This document shows positions 5,641 through 64,000 of a stretch of 64,000 nt of DNA, piece after piece. The notes under the pieces were generated by a model. It saw nothing but the letters and a program-made list of their open reading frames with translations. It did no database searches and had not been told where the DNA came from. Every line of letters begins with the position of its first letter. Position 1 is the stretch's first letter. This stretch comes from Dictyostelium discoideum (Eukaryota): the NCBI GenBank assembly GCA_000004695.1, contig CM000150.2:32001-96000 (forward strand). Direction: 5' to 3'. Position numbers and translations under genes: made by a program.

Positions 5641-5698
5641 TTTTGTTCTTTTTCATTTCCATTAACAATAATATGTTTAAGTTTGATATTATTAATTA

Positions 5699-7884: not shown

Positions 7885-7889
7885 ATCAT

Positions 7890-10049: not shown

Positions 10050-10192
10050 AAAAAATTCGTTGAACTTATTTACATAACTTTTACATTTTTACGTAACTTT
10101 TTCTTTTTTTTTTTTCTTTTTTTCCAATTTTCTTTTTTTTCGGTTGGAAATTATAGGATTTTAAAAAAAATTAAAAAAATATTATAAAAAAA

Positions 10193-10482
10193 ATGACTCA
10201 CAATAATTCTACATCATTTGAAACACCAAATAGAAGTGGTAATTATGTAAATAGATCATCTTTAACTTCACCAACATCACCAATAACACCAATACCATCT
10301 CTTATTTTAAATCAAACTGATACCTCCATAGGTCCACAACGTACTGTTAGAAGACAACAAAGACCTCAAAGACCAAATGCAAGTCATCCACCAACAACAA
10401 ATATTGTAGAAAAAATATTGGTGTATGAAACATTGCACAGAAATTGTGTTTCTCAATACTATGCAACTGGTAAGGTAAGATA

Positions 10483-10530
<48 letters not shown>

Positions 10531-11179
10531 GACTAATTAAATTAAATAAACAAAAACAATACATAAGATTTCCTCTCGTTTTATTAGGACCTGTATATTA
10601 AATGCTGGCGGTACAAATTCAAATGAAAATAAAGTTGTTCTATCCAAATTGGTTAAATGGGTCAACAATAAACGTGGTAACACACGTATTAAAGCCCTAA
10701 ATACCCTTAGACTTTTAGTTAGAAATAAAGTAGAACAGTTCAGCGAGTTGCTCTCTCAGGTTCCAGCATTAATGGAGTATGAATCGGTATGTAAAAAAAA
10801 AAAAAAATAAAAAAATAAAAAAAAAAAAAAAAATAAAAAAAAAAATAAAAAAAAAAAAAAAAATAAATTATTAATAATTTGTTTTTTTAATTTTTTAATT
10901 ATTATTTAGATAACTCCTTTTGATTTGGCCACTCTTATTATCGATACAGTTACCTTAGAAGCTTTTGACTCCGATCCTTTTGTAAAGTTCTTAGTGTCTC
11001 AATGCTTTACAATTGAAGAAAAAGAATGGTACAGCGGTTCCAAACCTCTTATTTCTTTAATAGTTAAAGCATTGCGTGGTGTTTCTCAAAAGTTCATTGA
11101 CTCTCCTGATGAACTTACTTACACTGAAAAGGTTGCTTTTGAATTCACTTCAATACCTCTTTATGCTCCACTAAATTAA
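10193..11179 (+). CDS. Family-A second gene (accessory protein of unknown function), 3 exons: about 10193-10474, ~10568/10588-10786, ~10909-11179. Exact splice phases not resolved by hand.
   Basis: Exon 1 ends ...YYATGK followed by GTAAGA. AT-rich introns end in AG. All three exon translations are conserved in family B (39540-40243, and 61147-61900 reverse) while the introns are not. Confidence 0.5.
10488..10525. repeat. Poly(A) tract (~38 nt) inside intron 1 of the family-A second gene
   Basis: Homopolymer; the corresponding tract in copy 2 (34483-34541) is ~59 nt. Confidence 0.9.
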
Positions 11180-11340
11180 ATCGTTTAAATAAAAAAAATT
11201 AATATGATTTCACATACTCAACTTTAATTTTTTCTTTTTTTTTTAAATCTTTATTTAATTTTTATTTTAAATTTTTATTTTTAATTTTTATTTTTAAAGT
11301 GATATTATTAATATATCTTATTAAGTTAACTTTATAATAT

Positions 11341-11760
11341 AAATTTATAAATGCACTTTTAAATTGAATTTTATAAATATAATTAATAAGAATACTTAAT
11401 AAGTGTACTTATAAAGAGTACATTATAATTATAAATAGTAATTACGCTTAATAAGTATACTTAATAATAATACTTAATAATAATACTTAATAAGTATACT
11501 TATTAAGTATACTTATTAATTTTACTTAATATGTATACTTATTAATTTTACTTAATATGTATACTTAATAATTATACTTAATAAGTATACTAATTAATTA
11601 TACTTAATAATTATACTTAATAATTATACTTAATAAGTATACTTAATAAGTATACTTAATAAGTGTATTTAATAAGTATACTTAATAAGTATACTTTATA
11701 AGTATATTTAATAAGTATACTTAAAAAGTATACTTTATAACTATACTTATTAAGTACACT
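11341..11760. repeat. Tandem array of ~15-17-bp units (TACTTAATAAGTATA and variants): subterminal repeats of family A
   Basis: Visible periodic repetition; the same array is at 35341-35760 and related arrays flank family-B ends (30300-30480, 36400-36480, 40808-40920). Confidence 0.75.
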
Positions 11761-11825
11761 TTATAATAGTACTATTTACATTCCTACTTTAAAGATGCTT
11801 TTAAGTATTTTTTTTCGCCCCTGTG

Positions 11826-12127
11826 AAAGGTATAGACAGGGTCATAGGTTCCCCGTCATTTTTTGAAAATGGGGTATATCCCTCTAAATAAATAAATCTA
11901 AAGCTAAATCCTATATTGACTTGCTATATTGCTAAAATTTGAATAAAATGAAAAAAAAAAAAAAAAATCGTAAAAACTCGAGGAAAAAAAAAAAAAAAAT
12001 ATTATTTTTAATTTCCACCCAGCAAACAAAATGAATTTAAATAACATATCATGCATTAATTGCAGAGAAAAATTAAAGAATTTTAAAAATATTATTATTC
12101 ATTATTTTATGCATAAAAATATATGTC
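11826..12127 (+). mobile_element. Family-B 5' region plus first 32 codons of its transposase (ATG at 12031), truncated at 12128 by a MITE-like insertion
   Basis: 11826-12127 aligns with 36707-37010 (aaaggtatagacagggtcataggttccccgtc...atgaatttaaataacatatcatgcattaattgc). Confidence 0.6.
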
Positions 12128-12764
12128 CACAGCAAAGAAAAATGCACCTTTAAAGCAAATTTAAAGCAAAGTTGATTTAAATTTGATTTAAATTGAATTT
12201 AAAGCCGCATTTAAAAAATTCATTTTTAAGGTAATTTTTAAGGTTATTTTTAAGATATTTAAAAATGCTTTTAAAATTTGCTTTAAAATAAATTTTTAAG
12301 CAATTTTAAAGGTGATTTTAAAGGTGATTTTAAAGGTGATTTTTAAGGTAATTTTTAAGATAATTTTTAAGATATTTAAAAATACCTTTAAAATTTATTT
12401 TAAATTAATTTTAAATTGAATTTAAGTAGATTTAAAGTAGATTTATAGTGAATTTAAATTTCCTTTAAATATAAATTTAAGGTTTTTAATAAAAAAGATC
12501 TAATTTTAGATCAAAATGGGGATAAAATATTCTATCAATTTTAAATTTTCATCAAAGCAATCAAATGGTGAAATGGTTGATGAGACTACCCTTTGATAAA
12601 GGGTCGGGGGGTAGAATCCCTTTTGGTAATTTTTGAAAAATTTAAAAAAAAAATTAAATAATTTTATCCGTTAAATAACGGCTTCGAACTCAGGACCTCG
12701 CTTTTAAAGCGATTAAAAAGGTTATTTTAAAGGTAATTTTTAAGGTGATTTTAAAGTAAACTTT
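12128..12764 (+). mobile_element. CACAG-terminus nonautonomous (MITE-like) element, copy i, 3'-truncated; contains GGTGATTTTAAA-type tandem repeats and a tRNA-like module (about 12545-12720)
   Basis: Starts CACAGCAAAGAAAAATGCACCTTTAAAGCAAATTTAAAG, the same as the termini of the complete copy at 55858-56605. Confidence 0.55.
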
Positions 12765-12812
12765 TAAATTTTTCAAGTAGCTTTAAACTTATTGAGTTTT
12801 CAATTCCCAACA
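12765..12812 (-). mobile_element. 48-bp fragment of the family-B transposase gene (reverse orientation)
   Basis: Reverse complement matches 37500-37547 (..FLMLGIENSISLKLLEKF..). Confidence 0.45.
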
Positions 12813-30255: not shown

Positions 30256-30505
30256 CACAGCGGCGAAAATCAACACTTTAAAGCACCTTTAAATCCAAGT
30301 ACTCTTTTTAATATATATTAATAAGTATACTTAATAAGTAATACTTAATAAGTACACTTAATAAGTATACTTAATAAATATACTTTATAAGTACTACTTA
30401 ATAAGTACACTTATTAAGTATACTTATTAAGTATACTTATAAAGTATTACTTTTTAAGTATACTTATTAATATATATTAATAATTAATTATTTTTATTTT
30501 TTTTT
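30256..30505 (-). mobile_element. Family-B right-end fragment (inverted): terminus CACAGCGGCGAAAATCAACACTTTAAAGCACC plus TAAGTATAC-type repeats
   Basis: Reverse complement of 40808-40976. Confidence 0.55.
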
Positions 30506-31270
30506 TTAAAAAATGTTTTGTGTGGGAATTGAACCCGTGACCTCCCTTCCTGAAGTTCCGTGGAAATGTTTTATGTGGGAATTTAACCATGACCTCCCTT
30601 CTGGAAGTTCCGGGGGAAAAAATGTTTTATATGGGAATCGAACCCTTGACCTCTACCTTATTAATTTATCGTATTTCTATGTAAGCTATAGACACTTTGA
30701 TAATTTTCATTGAAAATAGCTATAATATGAATGTTAAAAAACTTCCAAGTAAAAAAAAAAAGAATGTGAAATAACTCTGTGGTTGTTGTATTATTGATAT
30801 TGCTGTATGTAATTTCTATTGCTGTTGCTGTATTAGTGATGTTGTATTATTATTGTTGCTTTATTATTGCTGTTGTTGTACTATTGATGTTGCTGTTTTA
30901 TTGATGTTGCAGTCCTAACTGTTGTTGTGTTGTTATTATGTTGTAATTATTGTTGTTGTCGCACCTGTTGTGTTCAGCTACAGTGTTGTTATTGTGTTGT
31001 TATTGTGTTGTAATTGATTTTGAAGTTGTTTTGTTATTGTGTTGTTATTGTGTTTGTTGTGTTGTTATTGTGTTGTTATTGTGTTTGTTGTGTTGTTATT
31101 GTGTTGTTATTGTGTTTTTTGTGTTGTTATTGTGTTGATTTCATTTTTCAATTGATTTTGCAGTTGTTGTTGTACCTGTTATTGTTTTATTGTTTTATGG
31201 TTGCACCTGTTGTGGTTTTTATTATTGTTGCTAAAATTGTTGGTGTGTGTTGTAGTTGTTTGTTCTGTGT
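30506..31270. repeat. Left inverted arm of family-A copy 2: three tRNA-3'-half-like ~50-bp units (30513-30660), a GT-rich region, then a (TGTTGTTATTGTG)n array ending ..GTTCTGTG
   Basis: Inverted copy at 35830-36400. Units contain GGGAATCGAACCCTTGACCTC, the complement of a T-arm-like motif. Confidence 0.6.
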
Positions 31271-31289
31271 ATATATTCATAAAATTTTC

Positions 31290-31334
<45 letters not shown>

Positions 31335-31590
31335 ACTTTTTTCAATTTTTTCATTTTTTATTTTTTTTTTGCCGAAAAGGGAAAACATGCATGTTTAATT
31401 TTTAATTTTATTTTTTTTAATTTAATTTTATTTAATTCTTTTTTTTTTTTTGTATTTTTTTTTTTTTTTCATTTTTTTATTTCACTTTTTTATTTTTATT
31501 TTTTCATTTTTCATTTTTTTTTTTTCGCTTTTTTATTTCACTTTTTTATTTTTATTTTTTTAATTTATTTATTTTAAAAACATATTTGAA

Positions 31591-34041
31591 ATGGATTTAA
31601 AAAAAGTGGATTGCATTATTTGTAAACAACCAATTAAATGTTTCAAAGATATAGTTATACATTTTATTAAACATAATGATCGTTGCCCAATTTGTTTAAG
31701 CAAATATACATCATTTTCAAAAATGTATGCTTTAACAGGTCATTATTATTCACAAGGTTGTAATAATAAAAAAAATAATATAAAGGGTGAACAAAAATTG
31801 CAAGATGAATTTTATCAGAGGTTATCAAAGATTACAGGCGATAATATTATATACCCAACCAACTTATCCGATGACCCTTTCAATCATATGAGCCAACAAA
31901 ATTTAAATGAAAATTTTATAATTGATGAGAATAATAATAATTTAGAAAATGAAAATGAAAATGAAAATAATTCATTTGAGGATATAGGAAATATATTAAA
32001 CCAAAATGGACAAGAAAATGATGATATTGAAATTTTGAAAGAAAAAGAAAATGGAAATTTAGGAAAAGAATTAAATAATTATGAAATTGGATTTTTAAAG
32101 TTGGGTTTAGAAAATGCTAAATCGTTAAAATTTATGCAACAAATTTTGGATTTTTTTAAAAACAATATAAATGCAATTAATGAAATTAGATATACAACAA
32201 AGTATATGGATTCTATATTTTTAGCAAATTTACCTATCGATGGTCACTTTTTGAGTTACAAATATTATGAAGAGTCAATTTTTTATTATGAAATTTGTTC
32301 AGTTGTAAAATTATTAATTGAAAAAAAAAATTTTATAGAATATTTAGATTTCTCAAAAGACTATGAGCAAGGTATTTATAAAAATTATAAATCTGGAGAA
32401 CAATTCAAAAAAATAAAAAATTCAATTTCAGATAAATTTATTTTATTAAGAATATTTAGTGACGGAATGAGTCATCAAGGTAGATCAGATTATACTATAA
32501 TGGTGGATTTTGAAAATTATAATGGTCCATTTTTTAAAAATAACAAAATTGTTTTATTTATTGTTCCAAAAGAATGGTTTCACAATATACATCAAACAAT
32601 TAAAAAATTATTTTCAGCGCAATTTAATAATAAATTAATAATTAAAGATAATAATGGAAATGATTATGAAATTATACCATATGGATTAACAATGGATATA
32701 CCAGAATTTAGATCATCTTGTAGGATTAACCATTATAATTGCAATGAGTTCTCATGTCATACATGTGATAAACTAAGAGGTGTCGATTATTTATTAAAAG
32801 AAGGAAATTATAGAAATCAAAAAGACATTATTGACTTTCACAATTCAAAACCAAATAAACAAGATTTTTTAAATCCTCAAAATAAAATTTTAAAATTAGA
32901 AACAGAACAAAAAATGAAAAAAATCGGCATTACAGATTATGACAGATCTTGGGTAGAAAATTTAAAAATAAATTATTTGTACTTACAACCTGATATTTTA
33001 CACAACATATTATTGGGTATTGTACAATGGGTTTTAAATTATATTTTCAAAAAATATAAGGATCAAATTACAATTTTTATAAAAAAATTAAAAGAAGCTA
33101 AAATCATTCCAGATCATTTACCACCATCAGAATCTTTATTTGGTGTAAAAACAAGAAAAGGTAGAGAGAATAGAAGCATATTATATTATATTTTATTTTT
33201 TACTAAACCAAATGTATCAAATGATGATTTCTTATTATTAGAAGAAATGGTTCAGATTACTTTTTTATTATATCAAGATTCTTTCGACGAAGATGATTTG
33301 GATAAAATAAATTATTTAGTTAAAAATTTTAATAAAAAAATATTTATGATAATACCAAATGAACCAATCAACTTTCACCTTTTATTACATTATCCTTTAT
33401 ATATAAAAAATTGGGGTGCACCAAAATTTACATCAGCAGAGAGATTTGAAGCACAATTTAGTAAAATTAAAGACCTTTTGACAAACAATACAAACAACCA
33501 AGATCAACATAAATTTGAAAGAGTAACAAAAATATTAATGGCAACATTTTTAGATAATTTTAACAATCTAAAAGAAAAAGATGTTGACAATAATGATTTA
33601 ATTTTAGGGCAAATAATTAAAAAAAATGAAAATATTTATTTAAAAAATAATATTTTATCAGACATTAACTTGCATTACAAAAACATTGAAAATATTCAAT
33701 TTCATAAATCAATTAAAAATTTAAAAGAAATATATAATGTTGGTGATGGAATTGAAGTTGCCTCAGAAAATTCATTAACTGGACGATGGAGTGCAATAAT
33801 TATTGCTATTTGTTTAATAGAATTAAAAAATAAAAAAAGTGCACATTCTATTTATATACAATACTTTGATAAAGATACAGGTGATCAAAATAATAAGTAC
33901 CACTTTTTAAGAAAAAGCTTTTCAAGTATAGTATTTGATAACATAGTAAACACATTAATACCAATACAAATCGATTCGTCCAACTATCTTATAATTTATA
34001 AGTGCCATGACCAATTTTCAATAAGTAAAAAAAAAAAATGA
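31591..34041 (+). CDS. Family-A transposase, 816 aa, open: N-terminal C2H2/CPxC zinc-finger region then CACTA TnpD-like blocks
   Basis: MDLKKVDCIICKQPIKCFKDIVIHFIKHNDRCPICL..., then the motif set listed for 7890-10049. Confidence 0.75.
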   Translation: MDLKKVDCIICKQPIKCFKDIVIHFIKHNDRCPICLSKYTSFSKMYALTGHYYSQGCNNKKNNIKGEQKLQDEFYQRLSKITGDNIIYPTNLSDDPFNHMSQQNLNENFIIDENNNNLENENENENNSFEDIGNILNQNGQENDDIEILKEKENGNLGKELNNYEIGFLKLGLENAKSLKFMQQILDFFKNNINAINEIRYTTKYMDSIFLANLPIDGHFLSYKYYEESIFYYEICSVVKLLIEKKNFIEYLDFSKDYEQGIYKNYKSGEQFKKIKNSISDKFILLRIFSDGMSHQGRSDYTIMVDFENYNGPFFKNNKIVLFIVPKEWFHNIHQTIKKLFSAQFNNKLIIKDNNGNDYEIIPYGLTMDIPEFRSSCRINHYNCNEFSCHTCDKLRGVDYLLKEGNYRNQKDIIDFHNSKPNKQDFLNPQNKILKLETEQKMKKIGITDYDRSWVENLKINYLYLQPDILHNILLGIVQWVLNYIFKKYKDQITIFIKKLKEAKIIPDHLPPSESLFGVKTRKGRENRSILYYILFFTKPNVSNDDFLLLEEMVQITFLLYQDSFDEDDLDKINYLVKNFNKKIFMIIPNEPINFHLLLHYPLYIKNWGAPKFTSAERFEAQFSKIKDLLTNNTNNQDQHKFERVTKILMATFLDNFNNLKEKDVDNNDLILGQIIKKNENIYLKNNILSDINLHYKNIENIQFHKSIKNLKEIYNVGDGIEVASENSLTGRWSAIIIAICLIELKNKKSAHSIYIQYFDKDTGDQNNKYHFLRKSFSSIVFDNIVNTLIPIQIDSSNYLIIYKCHDQFSISKKKK

Positions 34042-34188
34042 AAAAAATTCGTTGAACTTATTTACATAACTTTTACATTTTTACGTAACTTTTTCTTTTT
34101 TTTTTTTTTTCTTTTTTTCCAATTTTCTTTTTTTTCGGTTGGAAATTATAGGATTTTAAAAAAAAATTAAAAAAATATTATAAAAAAA

Positions 34189-34476
34189 ATGACTCACAAT
34201 AATTCTGCATCATTTGAAACACCAAATAGAAGTGGTAATTATGTAAATAGATCATCTTTAACTTCACCAACATCACCAATAACACCAATACCATCTCTTA
34301 TTTTAAATCAAACTGATACCTCCATAGGTCCACAACGTACTGTTAGAAGACTACAAAGACCTCAAAGACCAAATGCAAGTCATCCACCAACAACAAATAT
34401 TGTAGAAAAAATATTGGTGTATGAAACATTGCACAGAAATTGTGTTTCTCAATACTATGCAACTGGTAAGGTAAGA

Positions 34477-34543
<67 letters not shown>

Positions 34544-35191
34544 AAGAGACTAATTAAATTAAATAAACAAAAATAATACATAAGATTTCCTCTCGTTTTA
34601 TTAGGACCTGTATATTAAATGCTGGCGGTACAAATTCAAATGAAAATAAAGTTGTTTTATCCAAATTGGTTAAATGGGTCAACAATAAACGTGGTAACAC
34701 ACGTATTAAAGCCCTAAATACCCTTAGACTTTTAGTTAGAAATAAAGTAGAACAGTTCAGCGAGTTGCTCTCTCAGGTTCCAGCATTAATGGAGTATGAA
34801 TCGGTATGTAAAATAAAAAAAAAAAATAAAAATAAAAAAATAAAAAAAAAAAAAAAATAAAAAAAAAAAAAAAAATAAATTATTAATAATTTGTTTTTTT
34901 AATTTTTTAATTATTATTTAGATAACTCCTTTTGATTTGGCCACTCTTATTATCGATACAGTTACCTTAGAAGCTTTTGACTCCGATCCTTTTGTAAAGT
35001 TCTTAGTGTCTCAATGCTTTACAATTGAAGAAAAAGAATGGTACAGCGGTTCCAAACCTCTTATTTCTTTAATAGTTAAAGCATTGCGTGGTGTTTCTCA
35101 AAAGTTCATTGACTCTCCTGATGAACTTACTTACACTGAAAAGGTTGCTTTTGAATTCACTTCAATACCTCTTTATGCTCCACTAAATTAA
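34189..35191 (+). CDS. Family-A second gene, copy 2: exons about 34189-34470, ~34585/34605-34803, ~34921-35191
   Basis: Identical organisation to 10193-11179; intron 1 carries a 59-nt poly(A) tract. Confidence 0.5.
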
Positions 35192-35340
35192 ATCGTTTAA
35201 ATAAAAAAAATTAATATGATTTCACATACTCAACTTTAATTTTTTCTTTTTTTTTTAAATCTTTATTTAATTTTTATTTTAAATTTTTATTTTTAATTTT
35301 TATTTTTAAAGTGATATTATTAATATATCTTATTAAGTTA

Positions 35341-35760
35341 ACTTTATAATATAAATTTATAAATGCACTTTTAAATTGAATTTTATAAATATAATTAATA
35401 AGAATACTTAATAATTGTACTTATAAAGAGTACATTATAATTATAATTAGTAATTACGCTTAATAAGTATACTTAATAATAATACTTAATAAGTATACTT
35501 ATTAAGTATACTTATTAATTATACTTAATAATTATACTTAATAAGTATACTTATTAAGTATACTTATTAATTATACTTAATAATTATACTTAATAAGTAT
35601 ACTAATTAATTATACTTAATAATTATACTTAATAATTATACTTAGTAAGTATACTTAATAAGTATACTTAATAAGTGTATTTAATAAGTATACTTAATAA
35701 GTATACTTTATAAGTATATTTAATAAGTATACTTAAAAAGTATACTTTATAATTATACTT
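35341..35760. repeat. TACTTAATAAGTATA-type subterminal tandem array (family-A copy 2)
   Basis: Same array as 11341-11760. Confidence 0.75.
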
Positions 35761-35829
35761 ATTAAGTACACTTTATAATAGTACTATTTACATTCCTACT
35801 TTAAAGATGCTTTTAAGTATTTTTTTTCG

Positions 35830-36400
35830 CCCCTGTGCAACACAACAAACAAATAACAACACAACAAACAAATAACACAATAACAACACAACAAACACAA
35901 TAACAACACAACAAACACAATAACAACACAATAACAAAACAACTTCAAAATAAATTACAACACAATAACAACACAATAACAACACTGTAGCCGAACACAA
36001 CAGGTACGACAACAACAATAATTACAACATAATAACAACACAACAACAGGTAGGACTGCAACATCAATAAAACAGCAACATCAATAGTACAACAACAGCA
36101 ATAATAAAGCAACAATAATAATACAACATCAATAATACAGCAACAGCAATAGAAATTACATAGCAATATCAATAATACAACAACCACAGAGTTATTTCAC
36201 ATTCTTTTTTTTTTTTACTTGGAAGTTTTTTAACATTCATATTATAGCTATTTCCAATGAAAATTATCAAAGTGTTTATAGCTTACATGGTAATGCGATA
36301 AATTAATAAGGTAGAGGTCAAGGGTTCGATTCCCATATAAAACATTTCCACGGAACTTCAGGAAGGGAGGTCACGGTTCAATTCCCACATAAAACATAAA
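35830..36400. repeat. Right inverted arm of family-A copy 2 (AC-rich array plus tRNA-half-like units)
   Basis: Reverse complement of about 30513-31140. Confidence 0.6.
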
Positions 36401-36913
36401 TATATATATTAATAAGTATACTTAAAAAGTAATACTTTATAAGTACACTTAATAAGTATACTTAATAAGTGTACTTATTAAGTAGTACCACAGCAAAGAA
36501 AAATGAAAAAAAAAAAAAAAATTTAATTATTTGTTTTGCATATTTATATTATAAGTATAAACATACATATAAAAAAAGATTTTTTATTTTTTATTTTTTA
36601 TAATTAATAAACAATTAACGAGTGCACAGGTATATTATTGCATTAGTGTAGTTTTACAATTAATTGGGCAGATTTTATAGTTTTTTTTTAATATTTTAAA
36701 AAGAAAAAGGTATAGACAGGGTCATAGGTTCCCCGTCATTTTTTGAAAATGGGGTATATCCCTCTAAATATAAAATTCTAAGTACTAAATCATATATCTA
36801 CTTGCTATAATGCTAAAATTTGAATAAAATGAAAAAAAAAAAAAAAAAAAACGTAAAAACTCGAGGAAAAAAAAAAAAAAAAAATTATTTTTAATTTCCA
36901 GCCAGCAAACAAA

Positions 36914-39420
36914 ATGAATTTAAATAACATATCATGCATTAATTGCAGAGAAAAATTAAAGAATTTTTAAAATATTATTATTCATTATATTATGCATAAA
37001 AATATATGTCCATTTTGTCTTGCATATTACCGTTCTTATAAACAATTTTATGATGTAAATGGACATTTCAACACCAAAAAATGTAAAAATGAACAAAATA
37101 AAATTATTACAAATAATCAAAAAAGAGATAGCTTTTATAAAAAATTAATGGATATTACTGGTGAAAAAATAAAATATCCAACAAATGATCCAGATGACCC
37201 ATGTAAACATTTATGTAACCAAAACCAAGATGAAATTTTTTATCAAGAAAATAATGAAAATAATGAAAATAATCAAACAATTGATAATGAAGAAAATCAT
37301 GATATAATTGGGTTGGTACATAGTGAAGATGAAAACAATGAAATTAGAATAGATGAAAATGAAGCAAACATTAATAATGAAAATAATGAAAATAATGAAA
37401 ATGAAAATGCTCAAAACGAACCAATAAATAATAATCTAAATAATAATTTAGATAATGAAAAATCAAAAAAAAAATTAAATGAAACTGAAATTGAATTTTT
37501 AATGTTGGGAATTGAAAACTCAATAAGTTTAAAGCTACTTGAAAAATTTAAAAGTTTTATTGACAAAAATAAAACCAATTTAAATCAAATAAGATACACA
37601 CCTCAATATATGGATAAATTATTTATTGAAGATTTTCAAATAAAAGGAGAAACATTTATAAATAAAAATTATGATCACTCAATTTTTTATTTTGAAATTA
37701 AAAAAGTATTAGAAACTTTATTAAATAAAAAGCAATTTTTTGAAAGAATAGATTTTGATACAGATTTTGAAACTGGAATTTATACAAATTATAAAAGTGG
37801 TCAACAATTTAAAGATTTAAAAAATAAAAATAAAAATAAAATTGTTTTACTTAGAATTTTCACTGATAGTATGCAGTGTCAAAACAAGAAAGATTATACT
37901 ATAATGCTGGATATAGAAAATTATATTGGAAATGAATTTAAAAATAATAAATTATTATTATTTGTAGTACCAAATGATTGGTTACTTAATTTTCATCAAA
38001 CAATTAGGGCATTGTTTTCATCTTTTATTGGTAATGGCTTTAATTTAATTATTGAAAATGAACAAATAGATGTTGTACCGTTTGGACTAACAATGGATAT
38101 TCCAGAATTTAGAGCATCGTGTAAACTTAATGGACATAATTCAAATGAATATGCATGTCACACATGTGAAAAACCAAGAGATGGTTTATTTATTTGCAAA
38201 TCAGGTACATTAAGAAAACAAGAAGATATTACAAATTTTCACTCCAACAAACCAAATTATGCTGAATTAAATGCTGATATAGAATTAAAAAAAGTATGGG
38301 AAAAAAAAGCAAAAGATATTGGTATCAAAGGTGTGGACAGAGGGTGGGTCGAACCCTTGTCTATTAATTATTTAAAAACACAACCAGACATATTACATAA
38401 TATTTTATTAGGTGTCGCGCAAAGATGTTTAAATTACATTTTTGATAAATATAAAAATAAAATTGCAAATTTTTTAAATAATTTAAAAAATGCAAAAATA
38501 ATAGATAACAAACCAAAACCTTCAATTTCACTATTTGCAAATAAAACAAGGAAAGGAAGAGAGAATAGATCAATATTATATTACCTTTTAATATCAATTA
38601 AAAATCAAATATCAAATGATGATTTTTTAATTATGGAACAATTAGTAACTATATGTTTTAAATTATATAGTGACTCTTTTGATGAAAATGATTTAAATTC
38701 ACTTCAAGTATTAATTGAATCGTTTAATGCAAAAGTAAATTTAATTACTGAAACAGAAATAATGAATTTCCACTTGTTGTTACATTATCCAATCTATATA
38801 AAAAATTGGGGAGCACCAAAATACACTTCAGCTGAAACTTTTGAAGCACAATTATCAAGAATTAAAAATTATTTAAAAAATAATACAAATAATAGGGATG
38901 AACAATATGAAAGGGTTACCAAATTAAACATGGTGAAATTTTTTAATTCAGTAGATAAATTAAAAAGTATTGAACCTGAAAGTACAGCATTAATTATTGG
39001 TTACAAAATAAAAAATCCAGATAATTTAGATAACATAAAAATTAAATTAGATTCATTATTTCAAAACTATAAAAATATAACTTTTCACTCATCAATTAAA
39101 AATAATTAAGAAATATACAATGTTGGTGATGCAGTTGAAGTTGCATCAGATAATGAACTTTCAGGTAGATGGTCAGGTATTATCAATTCAATATCAATGA
39201 TTGAAATGGATGATAACATAATAAAACATGCAATATTATTAAATTATTTTGACAAATATGTTGGTGACCAATTTAATAAATACCAATAATTAAATTATAT
39301 TACATATGATAATATTCTAAATAATGTTATACCAATTCAAATTGATGATACCAATTACCTTATTATTTACAAATGCCACGATAAATTCTCGGCTTCAAAA
39401 AATAAAAAATCAAAAAATTA
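36914..39420 (+). pseudogene. Family-B transposase (about 830 codons), disrupted: +1 T near 36965 (MNLNNISCINCREKLKNF*), in-frame TAA at 39107, further stops in the C-terminal domain
   Basis: 705-aa ORF-track piece 36992-39109 is homologous to the family-A transposase (same motif order). The undamaged N-terminus is seen at 12031-12127. Confidence 0.65.
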
Positions 39421-39539
39421 AAAACTTTTTTACATAATTTTTACATTGTTATGTAAATAATGATTTTTTTTTTTTAATTTTTTTTCATTTTCGGGCAGAC
39501 TGAAAAAGCGAATATGATTTCAATACATATTTTTTTAAA

Positions 39540-39920
39540 ATGAATTCATCTGCAAATTTTATAGCACCAAATGGTAATGTACCTGATTTTAACCAATCAC
39601 CAATCCAAAGAAGAACAAACAATAATATTTCTATCGGAGATGAATCATTTAATAATTTGTCAATAGGTAATGTATTAGGAAATGCAAATGCTCCAAACCC
39701 AATGGAAAACCAGAGAATAATTAGAAGAGTTCCAAGGCCAACTGTTCCACCAATCCAAGAAACAGTGCAAATAGCCACAAACCCACGTGTAACATACATA
39801 TTGGAATACGAAAGTCTTCAGAAAGTTTGTCAAAGTAAATACTATTCAGATGGCGATGTATGTTACCATTTGGTAATGAAATTGTGTGTATAAATTTATA
39901 TAATCAAAATTTACAAAATA

Positions 39921-39968
<48 letters not shown>

Positions 39969-40243
39969 AAATATAGTTTTCCCCTGCTTTACTTTCTCTT
40001 TTTCTCAGCCACATTAATTATGAAAATTATCAAAATGATATTTTCATAAAAGAGTTTGTTGACTCTTGTAAAACAGGTGAAGAGAAACACTGGTACCCAG
40101 ATTCAGTTCCTTTAATAAAGAGATTAATTTCAATATTAAATGATTTTAGTAGTAAATTTGACTCTAAGGCTAAAATGAGAAAAGATGCACAAGAAGCTTT
40201 TCAATTTCCTCATTCTGCACTTTACTTAAATTCTTCCCAATAA
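39540..40243 (+). CDS. Family-B second gene lacking the middle exon: exon about 39540-39857, intron with poly(T), exon ~40009-40243
   Basis: ..TYILEYESLQKVCQSKYYSDGD | ..EEKHWYPDSVPLIKRLISILNDFSSKF.. is homologous to family-A exons 1 and 3. Confidence 0.45.
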
Positions 40244-40489
40244 AAGTTTTAAAATAATTTTTAAAATTTAAAAATAAATTTTATTATTAAAAAATAATAT
40301 ATCTGTGTATTTTATTGTTCACATAAAATTTTATTTCATACTATAGTTTTAAAATAATTTTTAAATTTTTTTTTTTATTTTTGTGGCATTATTAATAAGG
40401 TGCTTTTAAATGTAATTATTAATAATCTTTAAAATTCAATTTTTAAGGAGCTTTAAAATGTAATTATTAATATAATTTTTAATCATATT

Positions 40490-40690
40490 TTTAAGTAATT
40501 TTAAAGAGCATTATAAAGTTAATTTTAAAGGGCATTTTAAACTTAATTTTAAAGAGCATTATAAAGGTAATTTTAAAGGTCATTTTAAAGGTAATTTTCA
40601 AGGTCATTTTAAAGTTAATTTTAAAGGTGATTTTAAAGGTAATTTTAAAGGTGATTTTAAAGGTGATTTTAAAGGTGATTTTAAAGGTCA
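40490..40690. repeat. Tandem ~10-12-bp repeats (A)GGTGATTTTAAA and variants: subterminal repeats of family B, also present in the MITE-like elements (12290-12360, 56370-56420) and at 60630-60900
   Basis: Direct visual periodicity. Confidence 0.8.
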
Positions 40691-40976
40691 TTTAAATAAT
40701 TGCTTTTAAATTAATTTTTAAGTGACTTTTTTATAGGACTTTAAATCCACTTTTAATTTAATTTAAAGTTGCTTTAAAGGTGTAATTTTCATCGCTGTGA
40801 CTTATAAAGTATATTTATTAAGTATACTTATTAATTGTACTTATTAAGTATTATTTATTAAGTATACTTATTAATTGTACTTATTAAGTATTACTTATTA
40901 AGTATACTTATTAATATATATTAAAAAGAGTACTTGGATTTAAAGGTGCTTTAAAGTGTTGATTTTCGCCGCTGTG

Positions 40977-54900: not shown

Positions 54901-57290
54901 CTTCCTTTGTGATGCAATCTGATTTCGGACCCTCTGGAATTGAAATCGGAATTGGGTTTAGCATCGGCTTGAAATTTGGAAGCAGATGGACTTTTAATCC
55001 ATTTACAACCTCTTGACAAAAGTTTAGAAGACCCAATTCTTTCCAAACTTGTTTGTGGTGGAACAGACGTCCACCTACTGGTAAGTTTACTTCTTGTTCT
55101 TCTGAAAACGGTTGTTGGTACCGTTGGCAGACTTTGTATTGTTGCTACCTGATGCAACAATACTTGGTGATCCATTGAAGTTGTTAGATCGGCCATTACT
55201 CCCACTACTGGATTTACCATTACTACTGTTTCCTGTAGTGTTATTACCACTTGAGTTAACTGATTTCTTGACATTGGACTTGGAATGATAATTCAATTTT
55301 AACAATGATTGTTTAGCTTCGTTGTTCTTTCTGATTGACTTGGCTAGCTTTCTTACACGTTCAGTTTCAGTTTCATCAAACATCTTTGGTGTATCCTTGA
55401 TCTTAATTCGTAAGAGTACTTCAGAACCATAAATTTCTTTAGCGATGTTGTTACGACGGACACGACTAAGCGATGCTTGAGCATTAACGGCTAAGACGAT
55501 TGCACTCTGAGTTAAATAACTAATAAGTTCTAAATCGACATTAGAGCTATCAGATGATAACATACTTGACATGAGAAGCAAAGGTTTTAAGCTATCGTTG
55601 ATTCGCTTTTCGACAATCAACAAGTCAGTATCATTGTTCTTGACGTTGGATGATACAGTAATACCTTCAGGTGTACCGAATGGAGCGACATTCACTTGGA
55701 AGTTAGATGGAAAGTTGAATACTTTATTCAATTCGGATATCTCATCTTTCTTGAGGATACATTCTTCTTCGACGAATAAACCTTGATTGTTAACCATATG
55801 TTTGTACTGACCAAGTAAAGTATCGGATAATTGATAATCGGTTGGAAAATCGACATTCACAGCAAAGAAAAAACCACCTTTAAATTCGCTTTAAATTAAA
55901 TTTAAATTTGCTTTAAAGTCCTGAATTAAAGCAATTTTAAAGGTAATTTTAAAGGTAATTTTTAAAGGTTACTTAAAATCACCTTAAAAAATTACATTAA
56001 AATTACCTTTTTAATGGCTTTAAAAGCGAGGTCCTGAGTTCGAATCCGTTATTTAACGGATAAATTTTTTAAAATTTTTTTTTTAATTTTTCAAAAATTA
56101 CCCAAAAGGGATTCGATCCCCCGACCCTCTATCAAAGGGTAGTCTCATCAACCATTACACCATTTGATTGCTTTGATGAAAAATTTAAAAATGATAGAAT
56201 ATTTTATCCCCATTTTTTTGTGCTAAAATTAGATCTTTTTTATTAAAAACCTTAAATTTATGTTTAAAGGAAATTTAAATTCACTTTAAATCTACTTTTA
56301 ATCTACTTTAAATCCTATTTAAAATTAATTTAAAATAAATTTTAAAGGTATTTTTAAATATCTTAAAAATTATCTTAAAAATTACCTTAAAAATCACCTT
56401 TAAAATCACCTTTAAAATCACCTTTAAAATTGCTTAAAAATTTATTTTAAAGCAAATTTTAAAGGCATTTTTAAATATCTTAAAAATTACCTTAAAAATT
56501 ACCTTAAAAATGAATTTTTTAAACGCGGCTTTAAATTCAATTTAAATCCAATTTAAATCAACTTTTCTTTAAATTTGCTTTAAAGGTGCATTTTTCTTTG
56601 CTGTGTTGTTACTTGATTCATCTTCACTTTGTTCATTCTCAGTGTCAGAGTCATCATGAGAAGGTTGGCTACGTGAATTGGTATTAGATGAGAACATAGG
56701 TTCTTTCATGAATCTAGTAAAGGCTAAGGAAAGGTTGTTGATTTGATCCTCCATTGACTTCATTCTTAAATCAAAGGATTCAGCACTATTAGAGGCAGAG
56801 GTATTGCTACTAGAGGCTTCATTATTATTAACAGTGGTAGACATATTTTATTGTTGATATCTAAAATTATAATATGAGAAAAATAATAATATTAAAAATT
56901 AATAAAGAGAAATAATTATTTGTATAAAATTTGTGTGTGTGTGTATCTTAAATATATATAGGAGGAATTCCCAAATAAAATAAATCGAATTGTTTTAGTT
57001 TTTAGTGCCACTATTTATACGTTTTTATTTTCTTAAAAATTTCGCAAAACTCAAAAAAATAAGAGTTTTCGACCCTTCACAACTTTGTGCATAGTGTCGG
57101 TTCGAAATTTTTCAGTTTTTCGACCTTACACAATGATCGCGTCATTGTGCCGGTTCGAAATTTTTACTTTTCTTTCGAAAATTTTTTATTCTTCGAATGT
57201 TCTAGAACATTCTAAAAAATTATCTTAAATATTTGGGAAATTCAAATAAATAAATGTTATTCATAATATATATATATATATGATAATATA
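51991..57290 (-). mobile_element. DIRS-1 copy D11, full-length-derived: recombinase C-terminus 52173-53429, frameshifted ORF3 pieces (53093-55036), ORF1 split by a MITE-like insertion, left ITR about 56870-57290
   Basis: ORF1 residues 79-335 at 55087-55857 and residues 1-78 at 56606-56844, separated by the 748-bp element. Confidence 0.85.
55858..56605 (-). mobile_element. Complete MITE-like nonautonomous element (748 bp) with ~15-bp TIR CACAGCAAAGAAAAA / TTTTTCTTTGCTGTG, internal GGTGATTTTAAA-type repeats and a tRNA-like module (about 56040-56180), inserted into DIRS ORF1 codon ~79
   Basis: Uninterrupted ORF1 reads ..atcgacattgttacttg.. (e.g. 17780-17800). Here atcgacatt + element + ttgttacttg, an apparent 2-bp (TT) duplication. 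Confidence 0.7.
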
Positions 57291-58692: not shown

Positions 58693-60530
58693 AAAGAGAT
58701 AGCTTTTATAAAAAATTAATGGATATTACTGGTGAAAAAATAAAATATCCAACAAATGATCCAGATGACCCATGTAAACATTTATGTAACCAAAACCAGA
58801 TGAAATTTTTTATCAAGAAAATAATGAAAATAATGAAAATAATCAAACAATTGATAATGAAGAAAATCATGATACAATTGGGTTGGTACATAGTGAAGAT
58901 GAAAACAATGAAATTATAATGGATCAAAATGAAGCAAACATTAATAATGAAAATAATGAAAATAATGAAAATGAAAATTGTCAAAATGAACCAATAAATA
59001 ATAATCAAAATAATAATATAGATATTGAAAAATCAAAAAAAAAATTAAATGAAACTGAAATTGAATTTTTAATGTTGGGAATTGAAAACTCAATAAGTTT
59101 AAAGCTTCTTGAAAAATTTAAAAGTTTTATTGACAAAAATAAAACTAATTTAAATCAAATAAGATACACACCTCAATATATTGATAAATTATTTATGGAA
59201 GATTTTCAAATAAAAGGAGAAACATTTATAAATAAAAATTATGATCACTCAATTTTTTATTTTGAAATTAAAAAAGTATTAGAAACTTTATTAAATAAAA
59301 AGCAATTTTTTGAAAGAATAGATTTTGATACAGATTTTGAAACTGGAATTTATACAAATTATAAAAGTGGTCAACAATTTAAAGATTTAAAAAATAAAAA
59401 TAAAAATAAAATTGTTTTACTTAGAATATTCACTGATAGTATGCAGTGTCAAAACAAGAAAGATTATACTATAATGCTGGATACAGAAAATTATATTGGA
59501 AATTAATTTAAAAATAATAAATTATTATTATTTGTAGTACCAAATGATTGGTTACTTAATTTCCATCAAACAATTAGGGCATTGTTTTCATCTTTTATTG
59601 GTAATGGCTTTAATTTAATTATTGAAAATGAGCAAATAGATGTTGTACCGTTTGGACTGACAATGGATATTCCAGAATTTAGAGCATCGTGTAAACTTAA
59701 TGGACATAATCCAAATGAATATGCATGTCACACATGTGACAAACCAAGATATGGTTTATTTATTTGCAAATCAGGTACATTAAGAAAACAAGAAGATATT
59801 ACAAATTTTCACTCCACCAAACCAAATTATGCTGAACTAAATGCTGATATAGAATTAAAAAAAGTATGGGAAAAAAAAGCAAAAGATATTGGTATCAAAG
59901 GTGTGGACAGAGGGTGGGTCGAACCCTTGTCCATTAATTATTTAAAAACACAGCCGGACATTTTACATAATATTTTATAAGGTGTCGCACAAAGGTGTTT
60001 AAATTACATTTTTGATAAATATAAAAATAAAATTGCAAATTTTTTAAATAATTTAAAAAATGCAAAAATAATAGATAACAAACCAAAACCAGCAATTTCA
60101 CTATTTGCAAATAAAACAAGGAAAGGAAGAGATAATAGATCAATATTATATTACCTTTTGATGTCAATTAAAAATCAAATATCAAATGATGATTTTTTAA
60201 TTATGGAATAATTAGTAACTATATGTTTTAAATTATACAGTGACTCTTTTGATGAAAATGATTTAAATTCACTTCAAGAATTAATTGAAAGTAAATTTAA
60301 TTACTGAAACAGAAATAATGAATTTCCACTTGTAATTACATTATCCAATTTATATAAAAAATTTAGGTGCTCCAAAATACACTTCAGCTGAAACTTTTGA
60401 AGCACAATTATCAAGAATTAAAAATTATTTAAATAATAATACAAATAATAGGGATGAACAATATGAAAGGGTTTCCAAAGAAAACATGGTGAAATTTTTT
60501 AATTCAGTAGATAAATTAAAAACACAGCGA
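58693..60530 (+). mobile_element. Family-B copy 2: internal transposase-gene fragment (residues ~47-600), frameshifted, lacking both termini
   Basis: ORFs 58883-59506 and 59582-59980 match 37300-38400 at protein level with frame breaks. Confidence 0.6.
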
Positions 60531-60532
60531 TG

Positions 60533-61421
60533 AAAGTTACACCTTTAAAGCAACTTTAAATTAAATTAAAGTGGATTTAAAGTCCTATAAAAAAGTCACT
60601 TAAAAATTAATTTAAAAGCAATTTTTTAAATGACCTTTAAAATCACCTTTAAAATCACCTTTAAAATTACCTTTAAAATCACCTTTAAAATTAACTTTAA
60701 AATGACCTTGAAAATTACCTTTATAATGCTCTTTAAAATTAACTTTAAAATGCCCTTTAAAATTACCTTTATAATGCTCTTTAAAATTACCTTTAAAATG
60801 ACCTTTAAAATGACCTTTAAAATTACCTTTATAATTTTTTTTAAAATTAAGTTTAAAATGCCCTTTAAAATTAACTTTATAATGCTCTTTAAAATTACTT
60901 AAAAATATGATTAAAAACTATATTAATAATTACATTTTAAATCTCCTTAAAAATTGAATTTTAAAGTTTATTAATAATTACATTTAAAAGCACCTTATTA
61001 ATAATGCAAAAATAAATAAAAAAATTTTAAAAATTATTTTAAAACTATAGTATGAAATAAAATTTTATGTGAACAATAAAATACACAGATATATTATTTT
61101 TTAATAATAAAATTTATTTTTAAATTTTAAAAATTATTTAAAACTTTTATTGGGAAGAATTTAAGTAAAGTGCAGAATGAGGAAATTGAAATGCTTCTTG
61201 TGCATCTTTTCTCATTTTAGCCTTAGAGTCAAATTTACTACTAAAATCATTTAATATTGAAATTAATCTCTTTATTAAAGGAACTGAATCTGGGTACCAG
61301 TGTTTCTCTTCACCTGTTTAACAAGAGTCAACAAACTCTTTTATGAAAATATCATTTTGATAATTTTCATAATTAATGTGGCTGAGAAAAAGAGAAAGTA
61401 AAGCAGGGGAAAACTGTATTT

Positions 61422-61471
<50 letters not shown>

Positions 61472-61749
61472 TATTTTGTAAATTTTGATTATATTAATTT
61501 ATACACACAATTTCATTACCAAAAAATACTTGGCTATCGGAAATATAAACTTTAAGATTGTGGTTTTTTTCACCTTTTGAATAAATGGCTAAACTGTCAG
61601 CTACTTTTGTTCTTGTGTTACTATCCTTATTACTTACCCATTTCGTTAACCTTGCAAAAATATTTTGACTGGTACAATCTTCGTTACTACCACCAGCTTG
61701 TTTAATTATTCCAGTAATAAAGAAATTTGAAACCTATTTATTTAAATTA

Positions 61750-61786
<37 letters not shown>

Positions 61787-64000
61787 ATTAATCTGGTAAC
61801 ATACATCGCCATCTGAAAAGTATTTACTTTGACAAACTTTCTGAAGACTTTCGTATTCCAATATGTATTGAAATCATTTTCGCTTTTTCAGTCTGCCCGA
61901 AAATGAAAAAAAATTAAAAAAAATCATTTTTTACATAAAAATGTAAAAATTATGTAAAAAAGTTTTTAATTTTTTGATTTATTATTTTTTGAAGCCGAGA
62001 TTTTATCGTGGCATTTGTAAATTATAAGGTAATTGGTATCATCAATTTGAATTGGTAAAACATTATTTAGAATATTATCATATGTAATATAATTTAATTC
62101 ATTTGAAAGAAAATGGTATTTGTTAAATTGGTCACCAACATATTTGTCAAATAATTTAATAATATTGCATGTTTTATTATGTTATCATCCATTTCAATCA
62201 TTGATATTGAATTGATAATACCTGACCATCTACCTGAAAGTTCATTATCTGATGCAACTTCAACTGCATCACCAACATTGTATATTTCTTTATTATTTTT
62301 AATTGATGAGTGATTATTTATATTTTTATAATTTTGAAATAATGAATCTAATTTAATTTTTATGTTATCTAAATTATCTGGATTTTTTATTTTGTTACCA
62401 ATAATTAAAGCTGTACTTTCAATTTCAATACTTTTTAATTTATCTACTGATTTAAAAAATTTCACCATGTTTAATTTGGTAACCCTTTCATATTGTTCGT
62501 CCCTATTATTTGTATTATTATTTAAATAATTTTTAATTCTTGAGAATTGTGCTTCAAAAGTTTCAGCTGAAGTGTATTTTGGTGCACCCCAATTTTTTAT
62601 ATAAATTGGATAATGTAACAACAAGTGGAAATTCATTATTTCTGTTACTTTAAACATCTTTGCGCGACACCTAATAAAATATGTAAAATGTCTGGTTGTG
62701 TTTTTAAATAATTAATGGACAAGGGTTCGACCCACCCTCTGTCCACACCTTTGATACCAATATCTTTTGCTTTTTTTCCCATACTTTTTTTAATTCTATA
62801 TCAGCATTTAGTTCAGCATAATTTGGTTTGGTGGAGTGAAAATTTGTAATATCTTCTTGTTTTCTTAATGTACCTGATTTGCAAATAAATAAACCATATC
62901 TTGGTTTGTCACATGTGTGACATGCATATTCATTTGGATTATGTCCATTAAGTTTACACGATGCTCTAAATTCTGGAATATCCATTGTCAGTCCAAACGG
63001 TACAACATCTATTTGCTCATTTTCAATAATTAAATTAAAGCCATTACCAATAAAAGATGAAAACAATGCCCTAATTGTTTGATGGAAATTAAGTAACCAA
63101 TCATTTGGTACTACAAATAATAATAATTTATTATTTTTAAATTAATTTCCAATATAATTTTCTGTATCCAGCATTATAGTATAATCTTTCTTGTTTTGAC
63201 ACTGCATACTATCAGTGAATATTCTAAGTAAAACAATTTTATTTTTATTTTTATTTTTTAAATCTTTAAATTGTTGACCACTTTTATAATTTGTATAAAT
63301 TCCAGTTTCAAAATCTGTATCAAAATCTATTCTTTCAAAAAATTGCTTTTTATTTAATAAAGTTTCTAATACTTTTTTAATTTCAAAATAAAAAATTGAG
63401 TGATCATAATTTTTATTTATAAATGTTTCTCCTTTTATTTGAAAATCTTCCATAAATAATTTATCAATATATTGAGGTGTGTATCTTATTTGATTTAAAT
63501 TAGTTTTATTTTTGTCAATAAAACTTTTAAATTTTTCAAGAAGCTTTAAACTTATTGAGTTTTCAATTCCCAACATTAAAAATTCAATTTCAGTTCCATT
63601 TAATTTTTTTTTTGATTTTTCATTATCTAAATTATTATTAAGATTATTATTTATTGGTTCGTTTTGAGCATTTTCATTTTCATTATTTTCATTATTTTCA
63701 TTATTAATGTTTGCTTCATTTTCATCTATTCTAATTTCATTGTTTTCATCTTCACTATGTACCAACCCAATTATATCATGATTTTCTTCATTATCAATTG
63801 TTTGATTATTTTCATTATTTTCATTATTTTCTTGATAAAAAATTTCATCTTGGTTTTGGTTACATAAATGTTTACATGGGTCATCTGGATCATTTGTTGG
63901 ATATTTTATTTTTTCACCAGTAATATCCACTAATTTTTTATAAAAGCTATCTCTTTTTTGATTATTTGTAATAATTTTATTTTGTTCATTTTTACATTTT
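60533..64000 (-). mobile_element. Family-B copy 3 (inverted), running off the window end: inner terminus unit (60533-60600), GGTGATTTTAAA repeats (60630-60900), second-gene remnant (61147 to about 61905, exon 1 largely deleted but middle exon retained), frameshifted transposase (62094-63930)
   Basis: 60533 CACAGCGATGAAAGTTACACCTTTAAAGC is the reverse complement of 40779-40807. ORFs 62094-62657, 62704-63066 and 63142-63930 match the family-B transposase. Confidence 0.6.

Follow-up and report, generated by a model that had tools for sequence, protein, structure and literature searches.

DDT-type DNA transposons nested in the chromosome 1 centromere of Dictyostelium discoideum: a pseudogenised family B copy within a family A fragment, and a transposase probably of the CACTA/Mirage/Chapaev type

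The stretch of DNA analysed here, hereafter the window, comprises 64,000 nucleotides of the chromosome 1 centromere of Dictyostelium discoideum AX4 (GCA_000004695.1, contig CM000150.2, positions 32,001 to 96,000); its G+C content is 31% and it consists largely of repeats. Very probably it holds a nest of DDT ("Dictyostelium DNA transposon") elements in DIRS-1-rich centromeric DNA, in which a dead copy of one family (B copy 1) lies inside an inverted fragment (A') of the other, family A, the transposase being of the CACTA/Mirage/Chapaev (CMC) type. The elements and their clustering in centromeres are already known, and a preliminary description of the window, made from its sequence alone, was largely real in what it observed but mis-parsed. 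For comparison, six related loci in other assemblies (L001-L006) were used, of which L001 is from D. cf. discoideum and L003 from D. discoideum GCA_054883475.1.

DIRS-1 occupies 53% of the window, and families A and B together with their short relative 34% (BLAST against reference copies). The most frequent repeat, about 4.8 kb long, contains overlapping open reading frames (ORFs), one with a tyrosine-recombinase domain, and is therefore DIRS-1. According to the published map, the chromosome 1 centromere is composed of 46.5% DIRS and 22% DDT; its elements are heavily fragmented by later insertions, and DDT and Tdd elements form self-enriched patches (PMC2665215). Since the composition of the window agrees with this map, families A and B can be equated with known DDT families. 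They are almost certainly the two autonomous ones, an identification set by organism, locus and size and not by consensus sequence. The element sizes found here are compatible with the 5471-bp DDT-B consensus (PMC9012585). The matching proteins are all named "hypothetical protein" in the databases.

Both families share a common anatomy. The DDT gene set consists of an intron-less transposase gene (ORF1) of about 820-840 aa and a second gene that is spliced and encodes about 256-276 aa. ORF1 is collinear between A and B (about 68% DNA identity over 2.1 kb, 48-51% protein identity), and the second gene, compared with a full B copy, matches in three exon-sized blocks (30-36% amino acid identity, E 1e-9 to 1e-12), so that the view of the two as sister families, alike in architecture and with homologous genes, is upheld. 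The termini are about 30 bp long and begin with CACAG. The CACAGC...GCTGTG ends of the preliminary description are real: CACAGSNNNGAAA occurs 10 times in the window versus 0.19 expected by chance, always at a repeat boundary (11825, 12128, 30256, 35837, 36489, 40799, 40976, 55858, 56605 and 60523), and CACAG opens the ten window termini and every terminus of L001-L006. Over their first 30 nt, A and B termini coincide only in part. The subterminal repeat arrays, of 12-13 bp units, are family-specific: the A 13-mer TATACTTAATAAG is present in 13 and 30 copies at the two ends of the element, and the B 12-mer ATTTTAAAGGTN, correctly recognised before, in 17 copies at the 3' end (Tandem Repeats Finder).

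The ten elements for which both ends are known are all flanked by a target duplication of 2 bp, without a fixed sequence (Table 1), and beyond these 2 bp the insertion sites have no sequence in common. In the case of the 748-bp element inserted in DIRS-1, intact DIRS-1 copies preserve the empty site ATCGACATTGTTACTTG, and TT is found on either side of the filled site (55858-56605).

The key locus is that of B copy 1, which begins where the preliminary description placed it but ends at 40799 instead of 40976. Its 3' end, ...TTTTCATCGCTGTG, is the same as that of copy 3 (60523) and of independent B copies including that of L002; in other assemblies, independent B copies terminate ...TTTTCATTGCTGTG. 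What lies beyond this end is family A: 40976-40800 matches 30256-30432, inverted, at 94.4%. On the other side of B copy 1, self-comparison matches 35838-36488 to the reverse complement of 30418-31126 (36397-35838 versus 30566-31126, 93.8%; 36488-36314 versus 30418-30596, 81.8%), and this block contains microsatellite-like TGTTGTTAT repeats, tRNA-like 53-bp units and 13-mers. As read from these alignments, both blocks are halves of a single inverted family-A 5' fragment, A'. On its minus strand A' reads ...ATATACTTTATAAGT, then B copy 1, then GTACTACTTAATAAG..., and the equivalent region of A copy 2 reads ...ATATACTTTATAAGTACTACTTAATAAG... The removal of B copy 1 together with one AC restores the A sequence, indicating that B copy 1 inserted in A' with a 2-bp duplication (AC, plus strand). 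At this locus, judged by sequence, it is B that lies within A, among the 13-bp subterminal repeats of the latter. The segments 30256-30505 and 36401-36488, formerly taken as family-B ends, and the TAAGTATAC tract assigned to B belong to A. This tract is made of the same 13-mer repeats as TATACTTAATAAG and is present at both A ends, and the left end at 30256 recurs, continuous with the remainder of the element, in an independent full A copy (L006, from 4464).

A copy 2, next to A', has both genes intact. Its ORF1 (31591-34041) encodes 816 aa that match AX4 DDB_G0267250 exactly, and its second gene (34189-35191) has three exons and GT-AG introns and encodes 256 aa in the splice model. The A copy 2 protein is identical in AX4 and in GCA_054883475.1. 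A copy 1 adjoins an unrelated retroelement at its left junction and, as had been described, B sequence at its 3' terminus (11825), where 11826-12129 matches 36706-37012 at 94.5%. This B fragment is bounded on the left by the A copy 1 terminus and on the right by a short B-type element. A and B are physically nested, as had been described.

Table 1. Elements, element parts, junctions and target duplications in the window and, where a locus is named, in related loci
Feature	Position	Strand	Basis or remark
Family A copy 1, 5'-truncated	7885..11825	+	98.0% identical to copy 2; ORF = DDB_G0267228 exactly
Old family-B fragment, B positions 218-522 (5' UTR and first 33 codons, without nonsense codon)	11826..12127	+	
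Short non-autonomous element, B-type termini, truncated copy, in B ORF1	12128..12771	+	94% identical to 56605-55957; terminus CACAGCAAAGAAAAATGCACC
Family A copy 2, complete 5582-bp element, both termini	30256..35837	+	Termini, ORF1, splice model
A' inner part, inverted family-A 5' fragment (A positions ~165-871)	35838..36488	-	Self-comparison and alignment
Family B copy 1, internally deleted pseudogenised DDT-type transposon	36489..40799	+	Termini CACAGCAAAGAAAAATG... and ...TTTTCATCGCTGTG
B copy 1 ORF1, transposase pseudogene	36914..39421	+	Translation, tblastn, alignment to intact ORF
B copy 1 second gene remnant	39540..40244	+	Exons 1 and 3 kept; middle exon deleted at 39868/39869
B 3' subterminal repeats, 12-bp ATTTTAAAGGTN, 17 copies	40487..40693	+	Tandem Repeats Finder
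A' outer part, terminal 177 bp of the same inverted A 5' end, A terminus CACAGCGGCGAAAATC, 13-mers	40800..40976	-	94.4% match
748-bp non-autonomous element, complete, B-type termini, in DIRS-1	55858..56605		Both termini, duplication TT
Family B copy 2, ORF1 fragment aa 63-688	58693..60522	+	2 frameshifts, 4 stops
Family B copy 3, runs off window	60523..64000	-	3 frame changes, 1 stop, 100-aa deletion
Junction in B 5' UTR	11825/6		
Junctions in B ORF1	12127/8, 60522/3		
Junction in A microsatellite	35837/8		
Junction in A subterminal repeats	36488/9		
Junctions in B gene 2	L003 8843/4, L003 12856, L004 8926, L004 11516		
Junction in DIRS-1	55857/8		
Duplication, B copy 1			AC
Duplication, 748-bp element	55858-56605		TT; empty site visible
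Duplication, B of L002			TG
Duplication, B of L001			AA
Duplications, two short A-type elements of L004			AG, TA
Duplications, four short elements of L003			GT, TA, TA, TA

B copy 1 has been inactivated by several lesions. Its length is 4311 bp, versus 5.0-5.6 kb in full-length relatives. Compared with L002 and L003b, it lacks 563 bp right after the 17-bp 5' terminus (36505/36506), and compared with full-length relatives it lacks at least 260 bp of the second gene at 39868/39869, including the middle exon. A tblastn search with the A gene-2 protein detects only exons 1 and 3 in B copy 1, as against three blocks in L002; a poly-T intron is located at about 39890-39977. ORF1 is a single frame interrupted by TAA codons at 36968-36970, 39107-39109 and 39287-39289, and it carries a 12-bp deletion at 39287. 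The in-frame stops from 39107 onwards had already been noticed, but the +1 frameshift proposed at about 36965 is actually the first TAA: the ATG at 36914 and the 705-aa ORF starting at 36992 share the same frame, and intact copies, as well as the fragment 11826-12129, have a lysine at that position. A tblastn search with the intact 842-aa protein yields a single high-scoring segment pair (frame 2, 97.7% identity) that contains 3 stops. Copies 2 and 3 are frameshifted fragments, as described, with their limits corrected from 60530 and 60533 to 60522/60523, the point at which the 3' terminus of copy 3 adjoins copy 2 within ORF1. Stops, frame changes and deletions make pseudogenes of all three window B copies. 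B copy 1 is no longer a source of transposase and its mobilisation has probably been lost.

A 2017 review states that none of the transposases of D. discoideum DNA transposons resembles known transposases (PMC5633606), and a literature search for a superfamily classification of DDT found none; a CMC assignment may therefore be unreported. A profile of the DDT transposases was compared with 1.84 billion representative proteins. Close relatives outside D. discoideum were not found, the hits being weak relatives with E values of 1e-7 to 1e-3. Three of these exceed the Pfam threshold for Transposase_21 (the CACTA Tnp2 family), and two bridging relatives also match, weakly, DUF1258, a Caenorhabditis family. 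By hhalign, the DDT profile aligns with the three Transposase_21-positive proteins at 97.4% probability (E 1e-11, 470 columns) and with 13 long relatives at 99.7% (E 1e-26, 540 columns). The aligned invariant positions are, in A numbering, D291, D369, C389xxC392, H471, H596xxxH600, G609 and E620. We infer that D291, D369 and E620 are the catalytic residues; CxxC (389/392) and HxxxH (596/600) would form a zinc module, and the N-terminal region would contain a zinc finger. D468, in a PDILH motif, was also considered as the third catalytic residue and rejected, as the invariant E620 following HxxxH fits better the RAG1-like order. The A gene-2 protein has no Pfam match and no detectable similarity to anything. 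Together with the profile comparisons, the CAC-starting termini, the subterminal arrays (found in the CACTA branch), the presence of two genes and a duplication of 2 bp in ten elements, within the 2-4 bp range of the superfamily, lead to the CMC reading. The DDT transposase is best read as a deeply diverged DDE enzyme of this group (Transposase_21), with putative catalytic residues.

The AlphaFold model obtained with 37 sequences, remote relatives included, has a pLDDT of 74 overall and of 80-95 in the core, versus 40 when only 12 close sequences are used. It predicts a BAH-like fold at the C-terminus (about aa 695-805), where local confidence is only moderate. At the sequence level, no BAH domain was found, either by comparing the profile with PDB sequences or by Pfam on the C-terminal 135 aa, and when the DDT C-terminal domain was compared by hhalign with the remote CMC-like relatives, their tails showed no similarity to it. 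This predicted fold bears on the question of why DDT elements accumulate in centromeres. The nesting could, as a tentative but plausible explanation, be purely passive: insertion would be random and the survivors would remain only in the gene-free centromeric repeats of a gene-dense haploid genome. Insertion sites that share nothing beyond 2 bp are consistent with this proposal, and so are the density of genes and the accumulation of DIRS, DDT and Skipper elements alike in centromeres (PMC2665215; PMC5633606). However, selection alone does not obviously explain the self-enriched DDT/Tdd patches (PMC2665215), and the predicted BAH-like fold hints at chromatin tethering. The bolder possibility, which we consider doubtful, is that DDT constitutes an Amoebozoa-restricted, diverged CMC branch with a RAG1-like core and a C-terminal reader of BAH fold that would tether integration to centromeric heterochromatin. 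Such tethering would explain why DDT amounts to about 20% of D. discoideum centromeres versus about 1% elsewhere, as well as the mutual nesting; that the BAH-like domain accounts for centromere targeting is speculative. Reader domains of other types, chromo and PHD, occur in mobile elements (bioRxiv 10.1101/2021.11.30.470311).

Regarding the catalytic core, the predicted model resembles RAG1 in a Foldseek search (E 1e-10), pointing to a RAG1-like fold. To our knowledge, no structure of a CMC enzyme has been solved, and the resemblance to RAG1 probably reflects this fact. It is unlikely that the DDT transposase should be placed within the Transib/RAG1 lineage, or as its sister, and outside the CMC group. 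Such a placement would agree with the CACAG ends, similar to those of Transib and to the heptamer CACAGTG of the recombination signal sequence (RSS), and with the order D...D-20-CxxC...HxxxH-20-E, reminiscent of D600, D708, C727/C730, H937/H942 and E962 of RAG1. Transib, however, makes target duplications of 5 bp, versus 2 bp in all ten complete elements, which renders a Transib affinity of DDT unlikely; in addition, the profile ties DDT to proteins passing the Pfam threshold for Transposase_21, and RAG1 may be merely the nearest solved relative of the CMC enzymes.

The preliminary description had proposed an active family A that inserts preferentially in B-associated repeats, or is cross-mobilised with B, and an extinct family B. 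This proposal, which now appears very unlikely, gathers some support from the window, where A copy 1 adjoins B 5' UTR at its 3' end, A copy 2 retains intact genes and termini and three of three B copies are dead, and from L004, where two short A-type elements lie within a B copy. Nevertheless, it is already contradicted on both the extinction of B and the direction of nesting. The intact B transposase that was to be sought elsewhere exists: L003 contains an uninterrupted B ORF1 of 842 aa, 98.6% identical to the conceptual product of B copy 1, and L001 contains a complete 5580-bp B element (4979-10558) with both termini, the second gene and an ORF1 of 831 aa. Another strain has a collinear 852-aa B protein, and in AX4 itself, chromosome 1 carries DDB_G0267352, a near-intact product of 813 aa (99.3% identity) from which no more than the first 26 aa are missing. 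Window B copies are mutually 96.5-98.2% identical, versus 98.0% between the two A copies. Family B, as judged from these reading frames, is not extinct.

With respect to nesting, B copy 1 is inserted in A and not the reverse, and the TAAGTATAC repeats are A's own. All combinations are found: A in A, A in B, B in A, B in B (for instance, at L003 8843/8844) and short elements in DIRS-1 or, at L003 12856-13613, in B gene 2. Among the junctions listed in Table 1, from the window and the related loci, only one falls in subterminal repeats, so that no preference of A for B-associated repeats emerges from these scattered insertion points. In L005 and L006, A copies lie beside DIRS-1 and not beside B. 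Both kinds of observation that the preliminary description had named as speaking against it, namely A copies in such other contexts and intact B ORFs elsewhere, have therefore been made. The differing subterminal repeats and the only partly shared termini make cross-mobilisation of A and B less likely.

The locus may have been assembled in four steps. First, A' would have inserted in minus orientation beside unique sequence at 40976/40977. Second, B copy 1 would have inserted in the 5' subterminal repeats of A', duplicating AC. Third, A copy 2 would have come to adjoin A' at the internal microsatellite; since the left flank of A copy 2 is DIRS-1, this step requires a later rearrangement or a recombination between A copies. 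CA is present on both sides of A copy 2 (30255/30256 and 35837/35838), which suggests chance, or a recombination between two A copies or a rearrangement, and not a simple insertion. Fourth, B copy 1 would have decayed through three nonsense changes of the AAA/TTA/CAT-to-TAA type and through deletions in the 5' subterminal region, ORF1 (12 bp) and the middle exon of the second gene. The movement of these elements would most likely be of the cut-and-paste type, with a target cut staggered by 2 nt, and their nesting would reflect the known accumulation of DDT in centromeric DNA and not a specific pull of A to B repeats.

That 30256-40976 is instead a composite "macro-transposon" with outward-facing inverted A 5' ends, moved as a unit or produced by aberrant transposition, is most improbable: the first 45 nt at 30256 are the reverse complement of those at 40976 (CACAGCGGCGAAAATCAACACTTTAAAGCACC...), both facing outward, and A copy 2 runs at its 3' end straight into an inverted A 5' region, an architecture for which alternative transposition of other cut-and-paste elements offers a precedent, but no 2-bp duplication is seen at the block flanks (left, ...ATATCA; right, GTTGAT...), which consist of a DIRS-1 fragment and of unique ankyrin-like sequence, respectively, and A' is about 94% identical to A copy 2, versus 98% for A copies 1 and 2, indicating that A' is an older, separate insertion.

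Several points weigh against the reading of the window as a nest of DDT elements with a CMC-type transposase. Pfam searches with the A and B transposases gave nothing direct even at E <= 10, and CMC membership is partly circular in that the bridging relatives were themselves found with the DDT profile. Similarly, the alignment behind the good AlphaFold model contained the remote relatives, and the solved structures that resemble this model are RAG1 and Transib only, none being a CMC enzyme. The flanks of A copy 2 (a DIRS-1 fragment on the left and the inverted fragment A' on the right) do not form one contiguous target, and the sequence of events at these flanks is uncertain. The letters A and B as used here do not imply a correspondence with DDT-A and DDT-B. 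Finally, a sign of present-day mobility was obtained for none of the copies.

Short elements accompany both families. The 748-bp element contains no ORF, recurs at 12128-12771 and 19582-19993, and has four more copies in L003. In all probability it represents DDT-S, the short form of DDT. In L004, two elements of about 2.5 kb with family-A termini (8926-11381 and 11516-14057) lie almost in tandem in B gene 2; they are non-autonomous A derivatives that evidently transposed, each with its own duplication. In L001, a B-type terminus at 2776 has the flank TTACCTTCTGTT, the reverse complement of which follows the terminus at 10558. This arrangement points to an inverted duplication with a transposon end inside it.

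Pieces similar to tRNA, with a B-box-like GGTTCGAxxCC, are found inside DDT elements at 30510-30653, 36314-36397 (an inverted copy), 56099-56169 and 12600-12720; the family A 5' region has three tandem 53-bp tRNA-like units and the short element one pseudo-tRNA. No RNA genes were detected in the window by ARAGORN with default settings or at the Rfam gathering thresholds. The tRNA-like pieces were reported by ARAGORN only at a very relaxed threshold and had no Rfam match at E <= 1; on this outcome they were rejected as genes and are regarded as remnants or box motifs. An A/B-box motif in DDT-B serves TRE5-A retrotransposons as a target (PMC9012585). A long tract of imperfect, microsatellite-like repeats (TGTTGTTAT and units related to it) extends over 30800-31270 and 35838-36170; within the non-coding 5' part of family A, it precedes a poly-T region that is promoter-like.

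Outside the nest, parts of 3577-7884, to the left of the truncated A copy 1, are 84-86% identical to the reverse-transcriptase-bearing L002 12701-13558, and this segment is probably a fragment of a long terminal repeat (LTR) retroelement such as Skipper or DGLT-A. To the right, 40977-41950 belongs to neither DIRS-1 nor DDT. A minus-strand ORF of 75 aa (40951-41178) is ankyrin-repeat-like and may be what is left of a host gene or some other element. With respect to annotation, AX4 DDB_G0267250, DDB_G0267228, DDB_G0267352, DDB_G0267274 and others are transposase genes or pseudogene fragments annotated as hypothetical or as "C2H2-type domain-containing", and in newer assemblies several gene models (P0016 and P0017, for instance) remove stop codons as introns.

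As these are known transposon families in a published centromere, the finding changes little. Its value is modest and lies in the clean definition of DDT ends with a constant 2-bp duplication, including the empty-site proof in DIRS-1; in the proposal that the DDT transposase, so far an orphan, is a DDE enzyme distantly akin to the CACTA/Mirage type and has a RAG1-like predicted core, which offers a mechanistic frame and candidate catalytic residues; and in the testable idea of a BAH-like domain that would steer elements to centromeric chromatin. The AX4 models DDB_G0267250, DDB_G0267228 and DDB_G0267352 can be recognised as transposase genes, now labelled hypothetical proteins.

Among known systems, the CACTA/En-Spm elements of plants share with DDT the CAC termini, subterminal arrays of about 12 bp, a transposase plus a second protein, a short duplication, and a DDE core that contains CxxC and H...H motifs and in which a long insertion separates the second D from the E. 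DDT differs from them in its duplication (2 bp versus typically 3 bp), its terminus (CACAG versus CACTA), the lack of a direct Pfam match and a second gene of no detectable similarity. By analogy with TnpA of En/Spm, the gene-2 protein might bind the subterminal repeats. Mirage and Chapaev elements have a distantly related DDE core, and a 2-bp duplication has been reported for Mirage; unlike them, DDT is much larger and carries long subterminal arrays and a second gene, and no close sequence relation was shown. Transib/RAG1 provides the best structural match to the predicted core and shares the heptamer-like CACAG ends and the same order of catalytic and zinc residues, whereas DDT has a 2-bp and not a 5-bp duplication, profiles that point to CMC and no RAG2-like partner. 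Chromodomain retrotransposons such as MAGGY are targeted to heterochromatin by a reader module; DDT would be alike if the predicted BAH-like domain is real, although the element class and the reader fold are different and the latter is known here from a predicted structure only. The closest counterparts are the DDT-A, DDT-B and DDT-S elements of D. discoideum, reportedly described by Gloeckner et al. in 2001. No difference from them is indicated: they and the families analysed here have the organism and the chromosome 1 centromere in common, are putative DNA transposons of about 5-5.6 kb with a short form, are fragmented and enriched in DIRS-1 clusters, and contain a tRNA-like A/B-box sequence within the element.

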